Below, in pieces: positions 37,200-45,309 of a stretch of 64,000 bases of DNA (position 1 is its first letter; each line of letters begins with the position of its first letter). The translations under genes were made by a program, and so were the position numbers. The stretch is from positions 96,001 to 160,000 of the forward strand of contig JAWLHR010000002.1 in the NCBI GenBank assembly GCA_041690295.1, given 5' to 3'. This stretch comes from Bdellovibrionales bacterium (lineage in GTDB: Bacteria > Bdellovibrionota > Bdellovibrionia > Bdellovibrionales > UBA1609). A model generated the notes under the pieces. The model ran no database searches, was not told where the DNA came from, and worked only from the letters and a program-made list of their open reading frames with translations.

Positions 37200-38175
37200 G
37201 ATGAAGACATTTATCAAAGATTTAAAAGAGAAGGACCAGGTCCAATCCATTTTTTTGGTGACGGAAAAGAATTCGGGAACGGACCGTAACGGCAAAACGT
37301 TCTTGAGTCTCACGCTGTCGGATGCTTCGGGTCATATCAATGGCCGCATGTTCGAGCGTGCGGCGGAAGCGGGTCAGGGTTTCGATGTGGGCGATCCGGT
37401 ATGGATCAAGGGATTCGTGCAATTGTTTCAGAACCGGCGACAAATGATTCTGCATGAAATTCGCCGCGCGACGGACGGTGAATTTGAAATGACGGATTTG
37501 GTGGCTGAGCTGGGCGGTGACCCGAAAAAACATCTCCAGGAACTTCTGGAGATCGTGGATTCGCTGGACAATTCCTTCGCGCGTGAACTTTTGCGCCGGA
37601 CTCTCAATGATCCGGAGATAAACGCGTTATTACTTCGGGCGCCGGCGGCGAAAACCATTCATCACGCCTATCGGGGCGGATTGATCGAACACATTCACTC
37701 GATCACCAAAATGATGGTGTGGTTATCCGAGCATTACCCGTTCCTGGATAAGAACCTTTTGGTTTTCGGTGCGATTTTCCATGATCTGGGCAAGGTTTTC
37801 GAACTGGGAATGGACGACGGAATTCAGTACACACAAAGCGGGCGTTTGATCGGACACATGGTTTTGGCCTGCGAGATCGTGGATCGCATCGCTGGCGGCA
37901 TTCCTGATTTCCCGGTTGATTTGCGAGATGTGATGAAGCACATCATTCTCTCCCATCACGGAAAACTGGAGTACGGTTCGCCGAAGCTGCCGATGATTTT
38001 GGAAGCGGTGGTGGTGTCCATGATCGATGATCTGGACAGCAAGGTGAACACGATCTCCCGCTTCTTAAAGTCGGAAGTGCAGAGTCTTCCCCCGAATGAG
38101 AAGTGGAGTCATTACCACGCGGGATTCGAGCGCTATTTCTTCCTCGACTTTTTCCGTAAGCGGGTGGAGTCTTGA
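37192..38175 (+). CDS. yhaM: OB-fold + HD-domain 3'-5' exoribonuclease, YhaM family
   Basis: LTLSDASG OB fold; PAAKTIHHAYRGGLIEH, FHDLGK, ILSHHGKLEYGSP, IDDLDSK. Confidence 0.88.
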   Translation: MSEMKTFIKDLKEKDQVQSIFLVTEKNSGTDRNGKTFLSLTLSDASGHINGRMFERAAEAGQGFDVGDPVWIKGFVQLFQNRRQMILHEIRRATDGEFEMTDLVAELGGDPKKHLQELLEIVDSLDNSFARELLRRTLNDPEINALLLRAPAAKTIHHAYRGGLIEHIHSITKMMVWLSEHYPFLDKNLLVFGAIFHDLGKVFELGMDDGIQYTQSGRLIGHMVLACEIVDRIAGGIPDFPVDLRDVMKHIILSHHGKLEYGSPKLPMILEAVVVSMIDDLDSKVNTISRFLKSEVQSLPPNEKWSHYHAGFERYFFLDFFRKRVES

Positions 38176-38354
38176 TGCGCGCCCGCTTCTGCGCGCTCAA
38201 TCATATTTAGAAGTGGAATCTTGATGCGCTCCTGCTTCCGATTTGGAAGTGGAATCTTGATGCGCTCCTGCTTCCAATCGGGAACTGGAAGCTTGACGCG
38301 TGCCCACTTCCGAATCGGAAGTGAACTCTTGATGTGCTCCACCCCGAATCGGAA
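38164..38354. repeat. five-unit ~36-bp tandem repeat made of yhaM 3' end plus palindrome
   Basis: Units at 38164, 38213, 38249, 38285, 38321; consensus GTGGAATCTTGATGCGCTCCTGCTTCCGAATCGGAA. Confidence 0.9.
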
Positions 38355-38364
38355 CGTGTGAGGT

Positions 38365-39018
38365 CTAAATGATCAACACGACCGGTTCCGCGTCGTCCAA
38401 ATCAGTGACAGCTGTCAAGTCACGACCCTTGCCGCGGATCACCCGCTCATTTTCCTGGGTGAGGTTCAATCCTAAAACGCAATTCCGCTCAGCGAAGTGG
38501 GTGGCCAGTTCTTGCGCGAGAATTCCCGCGCGATAAGGTGTTTCAAGAAGAATGATGGGTCGGTTTTCCTTGCGCAACTCACGCCAGCGGCGTTCGCGCT
38601 CTTCTTTTTTTGTCGGCAAAAAACCGGCGAAGAAAAAACTTTCCAATCGATGACCGGCCACCGAAAGGAGAGCCATCAAACTCGATGGTCCGGGGAGACC
38701 GTAAACCGGAATTCGCGCGCGATGGCAGGCGTCGACCAATTCCGCTCCGGGGTCGCAAAAACCGGGCGTGCCGCAATCGCTGACCAAGACGACATTTTTT
38801 TCGCGGCATTCACCGACAAAATACTGCACATCGTCTTGGGTCGAATGTTCATTGAGTTGATCCATGACTTTGGCTTGAACTCCCGCGGCCTTGAGAATTT
38901 GGCGCAACGCTTTGAGTTCTTCGCCGATGATCAAATCCGCATTTTTCATCGATTCAATGGCCCGCAAGGTGAAATCCTTGGGGTTTCCAATTGGTGTTGC
39001 GACCACGAAAAGCGCCAT
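38365..39018 (-). CDS. rsmI: 16S rRNA (cytidine1402-2'-O)-methyltransferase
   Basis: LFVVATPIGN, LVSDCGTPGFCDPG, PGPSS, FFAGFLP, LETPYR. Confidence 0.9.
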   Translation of the reverse strand: MALFVVATPIGNPKDFTLRAIESMKNADLIIGEELKALRQILKAAGVQAKVMDQLNEHSTQDDVQYFVGECREKNVVLVSDCGTPGFCDPGAELVDACHRARIPVYGLPGPSSLMALLSVAGHRLESFFFAGFLPTKKEERERRWRELRKENRPIILLETPYRAGILAQELATHFAERNCVLGLNLTQENERVIRGKGRDLTAVTDLDDAEPVVLII

Positions 39019-39040
39019 GGTACTGTCGGTATCACATCTT

Positions 39041-39766
39041 ATGGCGCGGTGGAAAGTCCTCAAATCACAGGATTTATTTAAATCGGGCTTTTTCAGGCTC
39101 CGCGTGGACGAATGCGAACTTCCCGACGGCCGTATAATGCCTCGATATTATGTGATCGAGTTCCCTGACTGGGTGAATGTGGTGCCTGTGACCGATGACG
39201 GCCAAATGGTTCTGGTGGAGCAGTACCGGCATGGAGTGGTACGGCTAAATCAGAATCCGAACGGCGATCCCGCGCCGGCCTCGGATCAAGACTCCAAATC
39301 TCGCGCGCCGGCCTCGAATCAGGCCTCCAATGATCGTGCATCCACCGGTGAGAATCCAGGCCACTTTGGTTCAGTGGCCAACAATGGTTCTACCGCCAAT
39401 CACAAAGAAATATTCCTCGAGATTCCGGGTGGAAGCACTGATCCGAAAAATCACGAAGACCCGCGTTTGGCGGGCGTGCGCGAATTGCGCGAAGAAACCG
39501 GATATGAAGCGCGCGAATGGGTTTATTGCGGTTTTCACTATCCGAATCCCGCACTCCAAACCAACAAGATGCACACCTTCGTGGCGTTCGGTTGCACCAA
39601 AGTGGGAGAGCCGATGTTGGATCCCTACGAGGACCTGAAGGTGAGTGTGCTCCCCGTAAAAGAGGTTTATCGCCGTTGGTATGCGGGTGAAATCAAACAC
39701 TCGTTGATCTTCACATCGCTTGGCCTCGCCATTCCGCACTTGCGTAAGGCGGGCTTTGAGGTTTGA
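39041..39766 (+). CDS. NUDIX hydrolase (ADP-ribose pyrophosphatase-like) with ~55-aa internal insertion
   Basis: VEQYRHG...LEIPGG...AGVRELREETGY Nudix box. Confidence 0.9.
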   Translation: MARWKVLKSQDLFKSGFFRLRVDECELPDGRIMPRYYVIEFPDWVNVVPVTDDGQMVLVEQYRHGVVRLNQNPNGDPAPASDQDSKSRAPASNQASNDRASTGENPGHFGSVANNGSTANHKEIFLEIPGGSTDPKNHEDPRLAGVRELREETGYEAREWVYCGFHYPNPALQTNKMHTFVAFGCTKVGEPMLDPYEDLKVSVLPVKEVYRRWYAGEIKHSLIFTSLGLAIPHLRKAGFEV

Positions 39767-39843
39767 TGGATTCCCCATCTGCGTAAGGCGGGCTTTGAGG
39801 TGTGATGGACCCATCCGTGTAAGGCGGGGTTGAGCTGTGATTG
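39731..39843. repeat. three-unit ~39-bp tandem repeat of the NUDIX gene 3' end
   Basis: ATTCCGCACTTGCGTAAGGCGGGCTTTGAGGTTTGATGG at 39731; copies at 39770 and 39809 (degenerate). Confidence 0.9.
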
Positions 39844-39927
39844 CGGGCGCTTTGAGCTTTTTAGTGGCGGCGATCGGCGAGATTTTTTGCACTAGACGTA
39901 CGAGTTCAATGGTTGCGCAGGATCCAC

Positions 39928-41046
39928 TTAAAATATGCCTCGCGCGTTCCAACTATCAAATTGCTTTTCAAGCTCACACTTAAACTTTAATCGATTGTGA
40001 ACCGCGCACAGCAACTGTAGATTCTCCGGCTCGTTACCGCCTCCCGCGGATACTGACCGAATGTGATCCAATTGTAAGAGAAATCTCGAGCCACACTTCT
40101 TACCCGTAACCGGGTCCCGCCATTGGCAGCATCGGTCTCTTTGATAAATTTCGCGCCTCACATGAACCGGAATAGGCTGTCGTTTTCCGGTTAGTTTCAC
40201 ATGAGCAACAATGGATTTCACATTGCCAGCTCTCAAACCTGCAAACGTTGGCATCGGTTTCTTACGTGAGAGCTGATTCCTTGCGACTTCCGATTCGGAA
40301 GTGAAGTTCCGCCCTAAGGTTTTCTGGGTTTGGCGCGCTGAGGCCGGTTGCAAAACTTTTTCCTCAGCTTGTATCACCGGAAAGGACTTAACCGTTTTGG
40401 ACTTCGGACGAGTGGACTTCTTTAATAGCGGATCCTTACGTTTGACAAACTCCTCGGTAAGTGCCGCAAACAGCTCGGCCCAACCGGCTCGGGGAATTTT
40501 GTGCGACAAAAGCTCTTTCGCGCGATTGATCTGTTCAATCTGTTCTTTGGTCAAGGTAAACTCAATCCGCACCGACTCATCTTGCTGCACGCGCTTCTTT
40601 TCATATTGAATCGGCTTCACGTCGAGAACCCGCGCCAACACCTTTTGCGTCTCATTCACGTCCCGGCCCTTGATTCGTTGTAAGAGCTGACGCTTTTCCT
40701 GGTTTGAGAGTGAAACCTCCGGCGATTCTTTTTTCTTTTGCCTAAGACTTTGTGCCATCAATGACATTCGGCTCACGTTAAGCTGGCCAGACTCCAGGTC
40801 GTGTTTGGCCTCAGGAACCGCCCGGAGAATGCGAGCGGCATCAATTCGCCTTTGCGCCGAAGCGGGAGTGTAGCCGATCCCGTCTGTGAGATAAGCAAAC
40901 AAACTCGAATAGCCCAGTTTTAAATATAACTTTCGACGATCGATCTCTTTGATGTGCTCCAGAATCTCGGCAGTCGTTCGTCGCTCGACCTTCACAAGTT
41001 CGATCAGGCGTTGAACTAAAGATTGATCGGTTAAATTGGAAATCAA
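39928..41046 (-). CDS. HNH endonuclease with N-terminal DUF222-like helical domain
   Basis: N-terminal LVKVERRTTAEILEHIKEIDRRKLYLKLGYSSLFAYL...AQRRIDAAR; C-terminal RDRCCQW...C...LDHI...GGGNEPENLQLLCAVHN; TTG start after AAGGGGG. Confidence 0.88.
   Translation of the reverse strand: MISNLTDQSLVQRLIELVKVERRTTAEILEHIKEIDRRKLYLKLGYSSLFAYLTDGIGYTPASAQRRIDAARILRAVPEAKHDLESGQLNVSRMSLMAQSLRQKKKESPEVSLSNQEKRQLLQRIKGRDVNETQKVLARVLDVKPIQYEKKRVQQDESVRIEFTLTKEQIEQINRAKELLSHKIPRAGWAELFAALTEEFVKRKDPLLKKSTRPKSKTVKSFPVIQAEEKVLQPASARQTQKTLGRNFTSESEVARNQLSRKKPMPTFAGLRAGNVKSIVAHVKLTGKRQPIPVHVRREIYQRDRCCQWRDPVTGKKCGSRFLLQLDHIRSVSAGGGNEPENLQLLCAVHNRLKFKCELEKQFDSWNARGIF
40286..40302. repeat. palindrome ACTTCCGAWTCGGAAGT inside the HNH gene (encodes TSESEV)
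   Basis: ACTTCCGATTCGGAAGT. Confidence 0.9.
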
Positions 41047-41133
41047 GCAAGCCCCCTTGAAAGCGAATTCACTTATAAAAAATCGGTTTGAAAAATGCGA
41101 GCACTTATGCGCCAAGTAAATAAAAATATTTTA

Positions 41134-41385
41134 TCCGAACTTCGGACATTGGGAAGAGAGAAAAGGTTATCAGCGTTGGCTCATATTCGCACTTCCGAAT
41201 CGGAAGTGAGTAAGAGTAATTCTCACTCGAATCGGAAGTACGGGTGCATCGGCAAGGTAATTACCAATACCAATGCGCGGCTCATGCACTTCCGAACTGA
41301 AAGCACGGGTGCATCGGCAAGTTAGCTGCGAATTGAACTCGAATTGGGGCGCGACTCACGCCTTCCTCACTTCCGAATCGGAAGT
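41134..41385. repeat. cluster of ACTTCCGAATCGGAAGT palindromes upstream of the HNH gene
   Basis: Perfect copies 41190-41208 and 41368-41385; degenerate copies 41224-41239 and 41287-41304; related TCCGAACTTCGGA at 41134. Confidence 0.88.
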
Positions 41386-41508
41386 TCTGTCGCCTCATTC
41401 TTCAAAAAGCCGAAGCGGAAACCCATGCGCGTTGATCTTAATCCAAGAGATGCCAGCAAACGGAAGGAGGACCACCGAAACCACAAGCAAAAAAATGCTC
41501 TCGAAACC

Positions 41509-42285
41509 TTATCCCGCCTTCCGCAAGCGCTTGCGGAACCGGTGATCCACGGGCGTGGTCAGGGAATGCGCGCCGATCTTGTACTCGTTCTTGCGATACT
41601 TCTCGCGCAGGCGAACGATTAAGTTCAAACAAAACACCAAACTCACCGCCAACGGATCGAACACCGAAACAAACAACACGATCAACCACTTGACGGCGCG
41701 GTCCGGGTCCACATCGAAGGCGCGGGCGATGTACATCACCGGACCGACCTTGGCGTTCAAACCGATCATCGACTGGCGCTTCAATTCCACTTCGTGCAAA
41801 ATCGCATCAGAGCGTGCATGCAGCTCATCGATCTTGGGCTGGTATTCCTTCTGAAACTCAAACTTGCGGGAAATCCGTGAAGGCGGAATCTGATCGATGA
41901 ACCGCCGGTACTCAGCCGCCTGAGCCAGAACTCGATCGTTTTCACGCAGTAAAGCTTCGATTTCCATTCGGCGTAAATGCAGGTCACCCGCCGCCACGTC
42001 ATAGGCGTGGGATAAATAGCCGAAGATCCCTATGCTCGTGATGGCCATGAGAACCACCACCGAAAAAATCAAATAACTCCGCAGGGGCCGGTGGATATGA
42101 CCCCAATAACGATACACGAAGCCCACAATAATGAATTTACTCAACTCCAGCGCGCCCGCCATGACCGCCACGGACTTGGGCGCGCCACCGAAGAGCTGGG
42201 CCAATCCGGTGATCGAAAATAAGGCGCCCGTGATTGAGACGATCACCGTGGCGACTAATAGCAGCACCAAATAAACAACACTCAT
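41509..42285 (-). CDS. membrane protein: 3 TM, coiled coil, TM (DUF4407-like / phage-type family)
   Basis: FSITGLAQLF...ALELSKF...YRYW...ITSIGIFGYLS and KVGPVMYIA...VFDPLAV motifs. Confidence 0.75.
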   Translation of the reverse strand: MSVVYLVLLLVATVIVSITGALFSITGLAQLFGGAPKSVAVMAGALELSKFIIVGFVYRYWGHIHRPLRSYLIFSVVVLMAITSIGIFGYLSHAYDVAAGDLHLRRMEIEALLRENDRVLAQAAEYRRFIDQIPPSRISRKFEFQKEYQPKIDELHARSDAILHEVELKRQSMIGLNAKVGPVMYIARAFDVDPDRAVKWLIVLFVSVFDPLAVSLVFCLNLIVRLREKYRKNEYKIGAHSLTTPVDHRFRKRLRKAG

Positions 42286-42341
42286 GCACTATATTGATCG
42301 GCCCATCTCGGCTCGAAATAAAGCCAGGCTAAGGTCCTGGA

Positions 42342-43862
42342 TTATTGAGTGGTGATGCCCATGCACGTCGGCTCACCAGTGAAATCAGCGAACACGATCG
42401 GCGAAATGCCTAGGTGATCGACGGTTCGAGAAACCGCGACGATCTGGTTCTGCCACGGGTCCGAGTGGGCCGTAGAAGGCCTGAGATAAAGGCATCTCTC
42501 CTGGTCTGTGATTCTGCCCTTTACGAAGTCCCAAGTGGAGCCTTCCGGTTTTTTAATTTCAACTTTGGCGACAACATTTTGGAATATGAAAACGCCAGCA
42601 AAATTCAAGCGCAGACTGGGATCACGAGCTTTGTTAAAATTGGGAGACGGATTGAACTCGAAAATAATCATGGATTGACGATCTCCGATTTTTTTCTCGT
42701 GTTTGAAATCCAATTCGGCGAACGTAACCATGAAGTAGTCGCGATTTAAATCGCGCGCGGAAGAAATAGTCACTTTGTCGGGTGTGTGGGCGGCGAACAC
42801 TTTTGTTTGACCACCCGCTCGCAGCGCGATTTTCAGTTTCTTCATAGGATATTCGTCTACGATTTCGAATTGCGCCTCACAATCCGCGATCTTTTCGCCC
42901 GTGGGCGTTCGGCACACGTCAACCTTGCGGCCGAGGCTTTCCTCAACCGTGAGAAGCTTTAAGAAATCGGCGAGAGGCATCTCTTTAATCGAGTCGAAGC
43001 CTTCGGGAACGGTGCTTTGCTCATTATCCAAGAATCTTTTGTCGAAATTGTTATAACGAAGGAGATCATCGAACTCCCGCCAGGTCATCGTGCGCCCACG
43101 TTCGAACAGAATGTCGGTGACACGTCGAATGGCGAAGTAATCTTGCCGGTTCAGCGGGCGTCGCGGTTCGGCTTTAAGCACAACGTCCATGTGGTTGAGT
43201 TCCCCGTCCGCGAAGTCAATTTTGGCTTTCGGATCCACCTGTTTGAACCGCCGCAGGATATCCGAGAATTTTTCGAATCGCAGGAGATAAAGTTGCATCA
43301 CGATTTCATGCAGGATGAGACGGGCGAATTCGCGGTCGTTGGTGTTATCGGTCTTCTTGGAGTCAATCCAAATTTCTTCGCGATCCTGACAGGCGAGTTG
43401 TTCCACGCCGTTTCCGGCGAAGCTTACGCCCAAGGTGTCTTTGTCCACGCAACTCATGTTCAAGGGGATTAGGTACCAGCGCTTTAATTTCAGCCAGATG
43501 CCGAGGTCATTCATGCTATCGTTTTCCGACGATTCCTCGGCTTTCTCTGACTTATTCAAATTGTCGATGATCGGCTGAATGTACTCCTTAAAACCCCGGA
43601 GCTGGGTGGGGTCCACGATGTAGGATTCGAACGGCTGACCAAGGACTCCATTGCCGCCACCACCATCGGTTGTGCCCTGAAATTTCCCGTTGCCTCCTGG
43701 ATTCGGCGACTGACCGCCTGGGCCATGGGCGTCCTCTATGGCCGGAGCGACACCCTTCACTTGGCGGCGGTTGTCCCGGTGACAGGCGCCGATAAAGGTC
43801 ACCATCGCCAATAAAAGGCAAAACAGCGTCCGGCTTGAGAGGTTAATCGCTTGTAAAACCAT
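42342..43862 (-). CDS. secreted/lipoprotein hypothetical protein
   Basis: Lipobox-like IGAC; GTTDGGGGN motif; LILHEIVM (incomplete HExxH). Confidence 0.75.
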   Translation of the reverse strand: MVLQAINLSSRTLFCLLLAMVTFIGACHRDNRRQVKGVAPAIEDAHGPGGQSPNPGGNGKFQGTTDGGGGNGVLGQPFESYIVDPTQLRGFKEYIQPIIDNLNKSEKAEESSENDSMNDLGIWLKLKRWYLIPLNMSCVDKDTLGVSFAGNGVEQLACQDREEIWIDSKKTDNTNDREFARLILHEIVMQLYLLRFEKFSDILRRFKQVDPKAKIDFADGELNHMDVVLKAEPRRPLNRQDYFAIRRVTDILFERGRTMTWREFDDLLRYNNFDKRFLDNEQSTVPEGFDSIKEMPLADFLKLLTVEESLGRKVDVCRTPTGEKIADCEAQFEIVDEYPMKKLKIALRAGGQTKVFAAHTPDKVTISSARDLNRDYFMVTFAELDFKHEKKIGDRQSMIIFEFNPSPNFNKARDPSLRLNFAGVFIFQNVVAKVEIKKPEGSTWDFVKGRITDQERCLYLRPSTAHSDPWQNQIVAVSRTVDHLGISPIVFADFTGEPTCMGITTQ

Positions 43863-43888
43863 GGCGGGTTTCTCCTTTCAAATTCCGT

Positions 43889-43936
43889 GCAAAACTGACC
43901 GGTCCGGAGCGTGAGGCGCCGGACCGGCGGTTTTGC
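43889..43936. terminator. intergenic stem-loop
   Basis: GCAAAAC..CCGGTCCGG..loop..CCGGACCGG..GTTTTGC just after the stop of 43941-44348. Confidence 0.55.
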
Positions 43937-43940
43937 AACC

Positions 43941-44348
43941 TTAGAAGCGGAAGCATGAGACCGAGACTTTATTGGGCTCGGAAATCAAGGTCAAAGCTCT
44001 AGAGCCCCACGCGGTCGAATGGGATTGCAGAAGCTCGTCCAAGTTGCTGGCCGTCACCTTGCCGATCGAAACGATCAATTGTTGCGGGTCGTTCTCGGGC
44101 TTTGACGTGTAAACCAAGGTGGCGCCGTCGATGGCTTTCCAGTCTTGATAGGCCATGTCGTCGAACTTCTTCAGGGTCACCTTCTTGCCTTGGATGATAA
44201 TCGCCTGACCGGTCACATCCTGAGCGGACATGACTTCCTGATCATATGAACCCTTCTCGTTGGGGTTCTCACCGTAAACGGCGCACATGATTTTCGCATT
44301 GGCGTTCAATCCGGCGATCATGAGAGCGGCTAAGACTAACTTTTTCAT
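43941..44348 (-). CDS. small secreted protein
   Basis: AAGGAG RBS; MKKLVLAALMIAGLNANA signal; N- and C-terminal Cys pair. Confidence 0.8.
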   Translation of the reverse strand: MKKLVLAALMIAGLNANAKIMCAVYGENPNEKGSYDQEVMSAQDVTGQAIIIQGKKVTLKKFDDMAYQDWKAIDGATLVYTSKPENDPQQLIVSIGKVTASNLDELLQSHSTAWGSRALTLISEPNKVSVSCFRF

Positions 44349-44455
44349 TTTCTTCTCCTTTGTTTTTGTTCGCGGCTTCATGCCGCGAGTTCGAAGCCAA
44401 TATACCGGCTCGACCTTCGTCGAAATAGATGGAGTTTAGTAAAAAGTAATGAAGA

Positions 44456-44476
44456 ACTTTTACCGATAGTAAAAGT
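44456..44476. promoter_or_regulatory. 8-5-8 inverted repeat abutting the TIGR02147 start codon, candidate operator
   Basis: ACTTTTAC-cgata-GTAAAAGT then ATG; an extra GTAAAAAGT half-site near 44439. Confidence 0.5.
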
Positions 44477-45277
44477 ATGGTTTCGGTTTTCGACTTCCAT
44501 GATTACCGGGAATTCTTAAGCGAATGGATTAAATCCGCGAAAATTCGAGGGGTTAAGTCTCGCTTGGCCGCCGCCGCCCAAGTCAGTCCGGCGATGATGA
44601 GTCTGATCTTCAAAGGCGAAAAACAAATGTCCATGGAACAAGCGGCTGAGGTGGCGGAGTTCCTTAATCTCAACGACTCGGAAACAGATTATTTCTTACT
44701 CTTAGTGGAACTGGGGCGCGCGGGCTCGTTTAAGCTCGAACAAAAGCTCAAGCGCAAAATGCGCGAGATGCAGAAGGAGGCGAGAAAAATCGCCAAACGC
44801 GTGCGCAAGGATCGTGATCTCTCCGACGAAGAAAAGGCGATTTATTACTCGAATTGGCTTTACACGGCCGTCCGCAATCTCTGCGCCATCGAGGAGTACG
44901 CGAATGTTCATCAAGTGTCGGCGCGCCTGGGATTGCCGGAATCACAAGTGGTGCGTGTGGTGGATTTTCTCCTCGAGCACGGGCTCTTGAAGAACGAAAA
45001 AAATCGTCTGACCTACGGCCCCGCGCACCTTCATATCAGTTCCGATTCGCCGTTCGTGAGTCGTCACCATCAGAACTGGCGGCTTCAAGGATTCAAACAC
45101 ATGGACCAACTCACGGAGAGCAATCTCTTCTATACCTGTCCGATGTCGCTTTCCAACGAGGCGGTCGAGAAGGTGAGAAAGCTTTTGCCCACCGTCATCG
45201 ATCAGGTTTTGAAGATCGTCGGCCCCTCCAAATCGGAGCGCGCGTTTTGCTTTAATATTGATTGGTTTGAGTATTGA
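44477..45277 (+). CDS. TIGR02147 / DUF4423 family HTH protein
   Basis: VFDFHDYREFL, HTH LAAAAQVSPAMMSLIFKGEK, YYSNW, HHQNWR, FNIDWF. Confidence 0.85.
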   Translation: MVSVFDFHDYREFLSEWIKSAKIRGVKSRLAAAAQVSPAMMSLIFKGEKQMSMEQAAEVAEFLNLNDSETDYFLLLVELGRAGSFKLEQKLKRKMREMQKEARKIAKRVRKDRDLSDEEKAIYYSNWLYTAVRNLCAIEEYANVHQVSARLGLPESQVVRVVDFLLEHGLLKNEKNRLTYGPAHLHISSDSPFVSRHHQNWRLQGFKHMDQLTESNLFYTCPMSLSNEAVEKVRKLLPTVIDQVLKIVGPSKSERAFCFNIDWFEY

Positions 45278-45287
45278 TCACATCATA

Positions 45288-45304
45288 ACTTCCGATTCGG
45301 AAGT
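45288..45304. repeat. solo copy of palindrome ACTTCCGAWTCGGAAGT between convergent genes
   Basis: ACTTCCGATTCGGAAGT, identical to the copy inside the HNH gene. Confidence 0.9.
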
Positions 45305-45309
45305 CGCTA

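Follow-up and report, generated by a model that had tools for sequence, protein, structure and literature searches.

The subject of our analysis is a gene for a DUF222-like HNH nuclease, together with a 17-bp palindrome that accompanies it, in a 64,000-nucleotide (nt) stretch of DNA from a Bdellovibrionales bacterium (GenBank assembly GCA_041690295.1, contig JAWLHR010000002.1, positions 96,001 to 160,000; hereafter the window). As read from the letters, this multi-copy HNH gene of predatory bacteria carries the palindrome both in the stretch that encodes a linker between its domains and in its non-coding leader (Table 1). The reading frame most likely starts at the TTG at 41046 rather than at 41115; a ribosome-site-like AAGGGGG lies 5 nt ahead of this TTG, and the product of 372 amino acids (aa) corresponds to protein record P0001.

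Table 1. Features of the locus in coordinates of the window (word A, the 17-bp palindrome).
Feature	Position	Strand	Basis or remark
DUF222-like / HNH nuclease gene	39928..41046	-	372 aa; Pfam HNH over cut-off, DUF222 under cut-off
Predicted ParB/KorB-like helix-turn-helix DNA-binding domain	40615..40980	-	Model residues 22-143; structure matches
Ala62 (372-aa numbering)	40861..40863	-	First turn of predicted recognition helix TPASAQRR
Ribbon-helix-helix domain, predicted dimer interface	40429..40599	-	Structure matches and homodimer model
Disordered, fast-changing linker holding the site	40195..40395	-	pLDDT <50
HNH nuclease domain	39961..40179	-	Zinc ligands and catalytic residues kept
Non-coding leader	41047..41508	-	Two exact (41191, 41369) and two degenerate (41223, 41288) sites
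Word A, exact copies (n = 5)	38306-38322, 40286-40302, 41191-41207, 41369-41385, 45288-45304
In-gene word A	40286-40302		Minus-strand reading TSESEV; sequence match; same frame in 37/75 homologues
Word A copy with 2 mismatches	38234		Sequence match
Degenerate upstream word A copies	41223, 41288		4 mismatches each
Array unit with degenerate word A	38270		5 mismatches
Solo word A	45288..45304	.	Inside 32-nt gap of converging genes; right edge of block 39767-45309
36-bp tandem array	38164..38340	.	Between converging yhaM-like and rsmI-like genes
39-bp tandem triplication of NUDIX gene 3' end	39731..39841	+	87 nt beyond HNH stop

Pfam recognized the HNH domain of the protein (26.9 bits), while DUF222 (PF02720) reached 18.9 bits (E 0.001) against a gathering score of 24.4; PF02720 is present in the precomputed matches of many homologues and in 12% in the Atlas cluster. 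The predicted model (predicted local distance difference test, pLDDT, of 83) opens with a helical N-terminal domain, followed by a strand-helix-helix unit, the disordered linker (residues 217-283) with the TSESEV peptide, and the HNH domain, in which residues C306, C317, D326, H327, C346, H349 and N350 are invariant across 43 sequences and whose top structure match is the HNH protein of phage GVE2 (Z 7.6). The N-terminal domain matches the DNA-binding domains of ParB-parS, KorB, Spo0J, SopB and VirB at Z 4.3-6.3, with six ParB-family members among the top 50 of the structure search, under the tool's guide value of Z 8, and P1 ParB as the top Foldseek row (probability 0.92, E 0.035); a sequence search of the PDB matched HNH domains alone and no ParB-family sequence. 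The strand-helix-helix unit matches the ribbon-helix-helix (RHH) proteins NikR, TraM, AmrZ, MazE and ParD (Z 4.0-4.8), and a homodimer prediction for residues 9-211 paired the chains through the RHH strand with a score of 0.66 (best of 3 controls, 0.00), a contact agreement between runs of at least 91% and a pLDDT of at least 82; among solved pairs, 20 of 30 attain the mark set for this score, compared with 1 of 23 single chains. The protein is predicted to join an N-terminal ParB/KorB-like DNA-binding domain and an RHH dimerizer through a flexible tether to an intact HNH domain. Rfam gave no match and PADLOC only weak ones, and no GC anomaly was found.

An earlier, sequence-only reading of the window had located word A inside the gene, upstream of it, in a downstream array and alone at the far end of the locus. 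These positions were correct to within one base, and so was the confinement of the palindrome to about 7 kb, as all 6 matches with up to 3 mismatches (0.26 expected in 64 kb) lie inside 38234-45304. Across the host genome (G000; 2.88 Mb in 30 contigs) we counted 10 exact copies (3e-4 expected), 4 with one mismatch and 9 with two, which makes word A the most frequent perfect 8-1-8 palindrome of this genome (10 of 90). The enrichment near the HNH gene that had been proposed is also found, with 4 of the 9 extragenic exact copies less than 5 kb away (P about 3e-8); none of the five remote exact copies (C2:173611, C6:10135, C9:118664, C14:21531 and C25:38535 of the genome contigs) adjoins a family gene. 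The exact word is absent from 60 related genomes of the same family, two congeners included, and from the other 11 paralogue loci of the host genome. The two degenerate leader copies form a duplication spaced 65 nt.

The site is a feature of the wider gene family, for which we gathered 138 loci (window included), 100 of them with a full gene and 75 non-redundant; the names of homologues indicate Bdellovibrionota. Near-perfect 17-nt palindromes in the linkers stand in frame 0 in 34 of 34 cases, compared to 7 of 26 in an N-terminal control. A generic pattern, ACYKCC-N5-GGMRGT, which was derived from the same loci in which it was counted, occurs in 38 of 75 linkers, all but one of them in frame, and 28 flanking copies were found in the 58.6 kb up to 1 kb upstream of the genes versus 23 in the other ~796 kb, mostly coding. 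Upstream and in-gene variants of the same locus differ by 1.29 positions on average versus 3.47 after permutation (p 1e-4; 14 loci, among which kin are not independent). A motif-blind comparison found that the linker of a gene shares a 16-mer with that gene's leader in 24 of 96 cases versus 2 of 193 controls, with two duplicate pairs included, and brought up further words besides A; cognate copies downstream of the gene were seen at 4 of 96 loci. The idea that homologues carry matched, co-varying palindromes inside and beside the gene has therefore come through the frame, leader-copy and motif-blind tests. It would explain the conserved linker peptides TSxxEV, TATVAV, TPTSEL and VPGPV, which would be translated DNA sites. 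In the linkers of P0042, P0178 and P0031 the site peptide is tandemly repeated, up to six times in P0042.

Other paralogues of the host genome carry words of their own. Word B lies twice upstream of, within and downstream of paralogue p3 and has 8 exact copies genome-wide, word C is found in the linkers of p4-p6 and word D in that of p11, and each of these words is also dispersed. The xPGx peptide encoded by words B and D occurs in 37 of 54 relatives of p3 versus 1 of 182 proteins of the window's class, and no word was found for p1, p2, p7, p9 and p10, motif-blind search included. Words of different classes stand side by side at C20:6369-6441 (D by B) and C21:55391 (A by a D-like copy) of G000, and at loci L204, L209, L211 and L212 of genome G013 word A adjoins other 16-17 bp palindromes. 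Several family copies of genomes G002 and G017 match only from profile position ~100-110 on and lie in long open frames, so their N-terminal reader domain may be a different one.

Site and protein also vary together within the predicted recognition helix. Pair 4/14 of the site is G:C in 22 and T:A in 11 of 37 in-gene copies, a swap by which Ser pairs with Glu and Ala with Ala in the linker peptide, and the sole alignment column that stands out against it is that of Ala62 (column 64 of the alignment): proteins with T:A sites have Ala62 in 10 of 10 cases, those with G:C sites Gly (24) or Ser (2) in all 26. Helix residue and base pair changed together six times on the tree (quick trees; two duplicates dropped), and the link also holds when only non-coding copies are counted (3/0 versus 0/12 loci, p 0.002). 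When linkers of two protein sets were classified by peptide, Ala accompanied the G:C type in 0 of 8 and 0 of 18 cases and the T:A type in 21 of 23 in one set and 3 of 8 in the other. We infer that Ala implies T:A while Gly is permissive; a methyl-thymine contact would have this effect.

Dispersal of the sites resembles that of repetitive extragenic palindromic (REP) sequences, as had been suggested. Near-exact copies of words A, B and D outside family genes are intergenic in 25 of 27 cases, and the 24 of 30 solo sites that could be classed lie between convergent (11) or tandem (13) genes and never between divergent ones, which account for 32% of intergenic bases; a cruder gene caller placed one solo site between divergent genes. 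The genes beside solo sites have no common function and none is an SOS gene (21 neighbours scanned). Solo sites are exact, yet their flanks are unrelated and blastn found no leader relics beside them. The gene family is patchy and multi-copy, with 1-31 matches each in 27 of 61 genomes and 11 in the host genome. Genome G013 has its own variant at 8 in-gene, 3 flanking and 14 solo sites. In G063, the complete genome that contains locus L034, 36 sites, most of them in clusters of 1-4 between genes, accompany three family matches, of which one is intact. Another genome, G065, holds 28 sites of its own element's variant, while G062 and G064 hold 17 and 3; the genomes chosen for site-less genes have 0, 0, 4, 1 and 17. 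Counts of the generic A pattern are near background in most of the 61 family genomes and do not follow gene number because other classes use other words. The one-sided tail AAGC-N4-GCGT accompanies 13 of the 29 G063 sites examined and the in-gene copy too (p 0.003), and CGC stands at +6 in 9 of 16 word A sites of the host genome (p 0.003); no such tail was found beside words B and D and the G013 sites.

The surroundings of the gene bear marks of rearrangement. The tandem array proper (38205-38340; period 36, 3.8 copies) repeats a unit made of the 3' end of yhaM, spacer and site, at a junction where the stops of yhaM and rsmI overlap without an array in congener G053 (gene names such as yhaM, rsmI and hrpB are presumptive). 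A single low-depth strain contig has the array 74 nt shorter, and in the same kind of contig a cluster of single-nucleotide polymorphisms at 40233-40266 adjoins the unchanged in-gene site. The NUDIX and HAD genes are direct neighbours in both congeners, which marks 39767-45309 as an inserted block, with the triplicated gene end on its left and the solo site on its right. Paralogues within one genome have 250-470 nt of leader in common, and genome G061 carries seven 88-96% identical copies of a ~1.65-kb unit with ragged, ~22-bp imperfect inverted ends, for which we found no clean target duplication; no inverted-ended unit was found for the window copy. Tandem amplification close to the gene, another proposal of the earlier reading, is supported by a 2.6-fold excess of tandem repeats in non-coding DNA less than 600 nt from family genes (24 repeats in 66.6 kb compared to 8 in 58.9 kb; p 0.009). 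In the HNH-only remnant p11 (G000 C11:27776-28072), homology begins at the in-gene site, directly after an AT-rich stretch.

The sequence-only reading had proposed an HNH analogue of the RAYT-REP system, and the host genome contains a genuine system of this kind for comparison. It has seven Y1_Tnp genes, all away from the HNH gene, and a genuine RAYT at C6:63303-63947 is accompanied by inverted REPs starting AARGTAGGCCGTTCC (26 REP hits genome-wide) that are unrelated to words A-D; pairs of this REP form REPIN-like doublets, which likely explain the AGGATGC-N3-GCATCCT palindromes (11 copies). As a separate observation, five of the 14 non-coding tandem repeats of the genome adjoin Y1 transposase-like genes without obvious REPs (G000 C2:75416, C6:118845, C13:17804, C14:20713 and C17:37875).

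At the genomic level, the analogy stood. RAYT systems pile REPs near the gene and draw gene ends into arrays (PMC2817692; for this and all other published systems, the comparison covers the accessible parts of the cited accounts), and our locus likewise combines a nuclease gene with adjoining cognate palindromes that co-evolve with the protein and are strain-specific, as well as intergenic dispersal downstream of or between converging genes, pile-up near the gene, clusters (as in bacterial interspersed mosaic elements, BIMEs, and REPINs) and gene 3' ends in arrays (PMC2817692, PMC3733652). The repeat is abundant where the gene is present, with genomes G061 and G070 as exceptions. The analogy failed in the type of protein, the tag and the layout. 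Pfam recognizes HNH and, weakly, DUF222 rather than the Y1_Tnp (IS200/IS605-type HUH tyrosine transposase) that would make the gene a RAYT, and a duplex-type helix-turn-helix reader is predicted. No GTAG or CGTC tetranucleotide appears in the flank profiles of the sites. Instead of an inverted pair flanking the gene, copies lie upstream and inside, in the gene's own linker, with the nearest downstream copy 1.6 kb off, and the HNH gene is itself multi-copy with tens of sites as opposed to more than 100.

The mechanism that we propose begins with a ParB-like helix-turn-helix dimer that would bind the 17-bp dyad as double-stranded DNA. Such duplex binding is very probable in our view because of the likeness to ParB-type helix-turn-helix domains, the helix residue that tracks a base pair and the weak folding of some words. 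The tethered HNH domain would then nick DNA near the bound site, and repair of these nicks through template switching or gene conversion would give rise to solo copies, clusters and tandem duplications, while copies landing in genes or promoters would be purged. Leader and in-gene copies may be main and auxiliary operators through which the level of a toxic nuclease is limited, like the operator of I-TevI, and may also serve as loading sites that position the nuclease. The copies are cognate, exact, genome-specific and intergenic with unique flanks, and tandem duplications lie nearby, from which we infer that the nuclease writes new site copies; the full chain from duplex binding over nicking to copying repair seems somewhat more probable than any failure along it. 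More broadly, it is about an even question whether each DUF222-like HNH subfamily writes its own site into linker and leader, changes site and helix in concert and spreads the site over the chromosome by nicking and repair, as a REP engine independent of RAYTs.

Several observations weigh against this mechanism. On the protein side, no Foldseek row reached E 0.001, all fold Z-scores are below 8, unrelated helical proteins attain scores equal to those of the ParB-type matches, and the homodimer may have passed through likeness to RHH dimers that are already solved. Only 3 well-supported independent pairs underlie the covariation of helix and site (3 of 3 agree, sign test p 0.25), 74 of 119 homologues are unlabelled in that comparison, and T:A-type peptides without Ala occur (4 Gly and 1 Ser of 8; 1 Gly and 1 Ser of 23). 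Because loci were first searched for with a helix pattern, one class was pre-selected. The generic motif is missing from 37 of 75 homologues, and 72 of 96 genes have no 16-mer common to linker and leader. Sites lie inside just 3 of 76 tandem-repeat rows near homologues. Genome G061, with its recent burst of gene copies, has just 2 sites by the pattern used, and G070, chosen as site-less, is the genome with 17, though it holds further homologues with in-gene sites. An empty site at base level was not found in the congeners, which are too distant, or in strain contigs, and the strain contigs, which are short and come from four runs, contained no joint that spans a solo site.

Among other explanations, it is rather unlikely, if quite conceivable, that the protein merely binds its own operator and that RAYT activity, element decay or horizontal uptake spread the solo copies. 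A RAYT-type REP immediately adjoins 2 of the 29 solo sites, with equal offset in both, which also counts against the mechanism above, and a third site lies 199 nt off; 3 of 18 site loci in G063 have a RAYT-type repeat within 250 nt, and one of the solo A sites precedes a Y1 transposase open reading frame (ORF) by 175 nt. Such proximity may reflect shared havens or co-mobilization. Several solo sites also lie in or at the edge of blocks missing from congeners, and remnant p11 starts where a deletion at the in-gene site would leave it. However, the RAYT of this genome has a different REP of its own that 26 of 29 solo sites do not adjoin, the single Y1 gene of G063 has its own inverted repeats and no site within 3.5 kb, and the solo sites are exact copies that have unrelated flanks and no leader relics by blastn. 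Recognition and nicking of a folded single-stranded hairpin or cruciform, which would copy RAYT chemistry and had been the original suggestion, appears improbable. Word A does fold (7-bp stem, -5.6 kcal/mol), G063 clusters of 2-4 copies resemble BIMEs, placement downstream of or between converging genes is REP-like, and at in-gene pair 3/15 the sense strand has 7 T-G but no C-A mismatches, which hints at selection on a hairpin or RNA and speaks against the duplex model. But in-gene words B and C fold at just -0.1 to -2.3 kcal/mol and yet behave like A, so that two of four words barely fold, which points to duplex recognition, as do the helix residue that tracks a base pair like in major-groove reading and the missing GTAG/CGTC tag; ParB-family helix-turn-helix dimers bind duplex palindromes (PMC7383237).

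It is very unlikely that the palindrome is the operator of a host regulator such as LexA or another repressor for the nuclease gene and a regulon. Sites 145 and 323 nt upstream of the gene start would suit an operator, but the exact word is missing from relatives including both congeners, four words within one genome are each tied to a paralogue class, no classed solo site lies between divergent genes, neighbours have neither a common function nor an SOS gene among them, and a host operator would not track the helix of the HNH protein. Equally little speaks for a guide RNA encoded by the leader or the 36-bp array (IscB/omegaRNA- or TIGR-like) and an RNA-guided protein. The leader shared between paralogues and its fold in the window (z -3.0) would agree with this, and TIGR units are 36 nt long like the period of the array; the fold score takes in the palindromes themselves, though, and the array has arisen from duplication of a gene end, has since decayed and varies between strains. 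The IscB model scored 21 bits against a cut-off of 175 and on the HNH part only. With no RuvC or Nop domain in Pfam and no Rfam match, we rejected membership in IscB or TIGR-Tas.

Features of the proposed nuclease recur singly in known systems. Actinobacterial DUF222-HNH/REP13E12 genes are likewise multi-copy genes of DUF222 type with HNH and of unknown function (PMC13061034, PMC10589994), and in M. tuberculosis the REP13E12 loci are known as hotspots of gene conversion (87 events; PMC13061034). Unlike these, the window gene falls below the Pfam cut-off for DUF222, and the accessible parts of these accounts mention no in-gene site or cognate repeat (PMC13061034, PMC10589994). I-TevI shares the order of DNA-binding domain, long linker and nuclease with an operator copy upstream of its gene (PMC2988022), but is an intron-borne GIY-YIG enzyme that cuts the intron-less allele, whereas the HNH gene keeps an intact site inside and copies of the site are scattered over the genome. 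A homing endonuclease was rejected on the same grounds, as the target is not interrupted and intact cognate sites lie within and before the gene. ParB dimers read palindromic duplex sites via a recognition helix in which few residues switch specificity (PMC7383237); the predicted fold of residues 22-143 and the two-fold reading of a 16-17 bp palindrome would resemble ParB, Noc, KorB and SopB (compared structures: PDB 6s6h, 1r71, 1vz0, 3mkw and 1zx4), from which the protein differs by its fusion to RHH and HNH domains, by the lack of a visible CTPase domain and by a similarity that is modest (Z up to 6.3).

A published pairing of a DUF222/HNH gene with its own palindrome was not found in a literature search that worked mostly at abstract level, with subscription journals and supplements outside its reach. 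Some REP-like families have no assigned driver (PMC3733652), and the mechanism proposed here, if true, would provide a second, unrelated driver of repeats that have so far been tied to one transposase family. The large uncharacterized DUF222-HNH family would gain a substrate that can be read from each gene, and with 8,539 clusters at E 1e-10, a protein-DNA code might be readable across thousands of them. Through covariation of helix and base, the family would then offer compact sequence-specific nucleases for sites of 16-17 bp as a natural library.

Further features of the region lie beside these subjects. Between the leader and the solo site, the inserted block holds three unannotated genes and a TIGR02147/DUF4423 gene (41509-45277), of which the gene at 41509-42285 has a paralogue on C23 and neighbours an efflux-type gene in each of the two congeners. 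A low-complexity insert of ~60 aa with a 33-bp duplication (39268-39460) in the NUDIX gene is absent from both congeners. Elsewhere in the host genome, a CRISPR-like array at C11:86032-87279 has a repeat of about 36 nt and a period of about 71.

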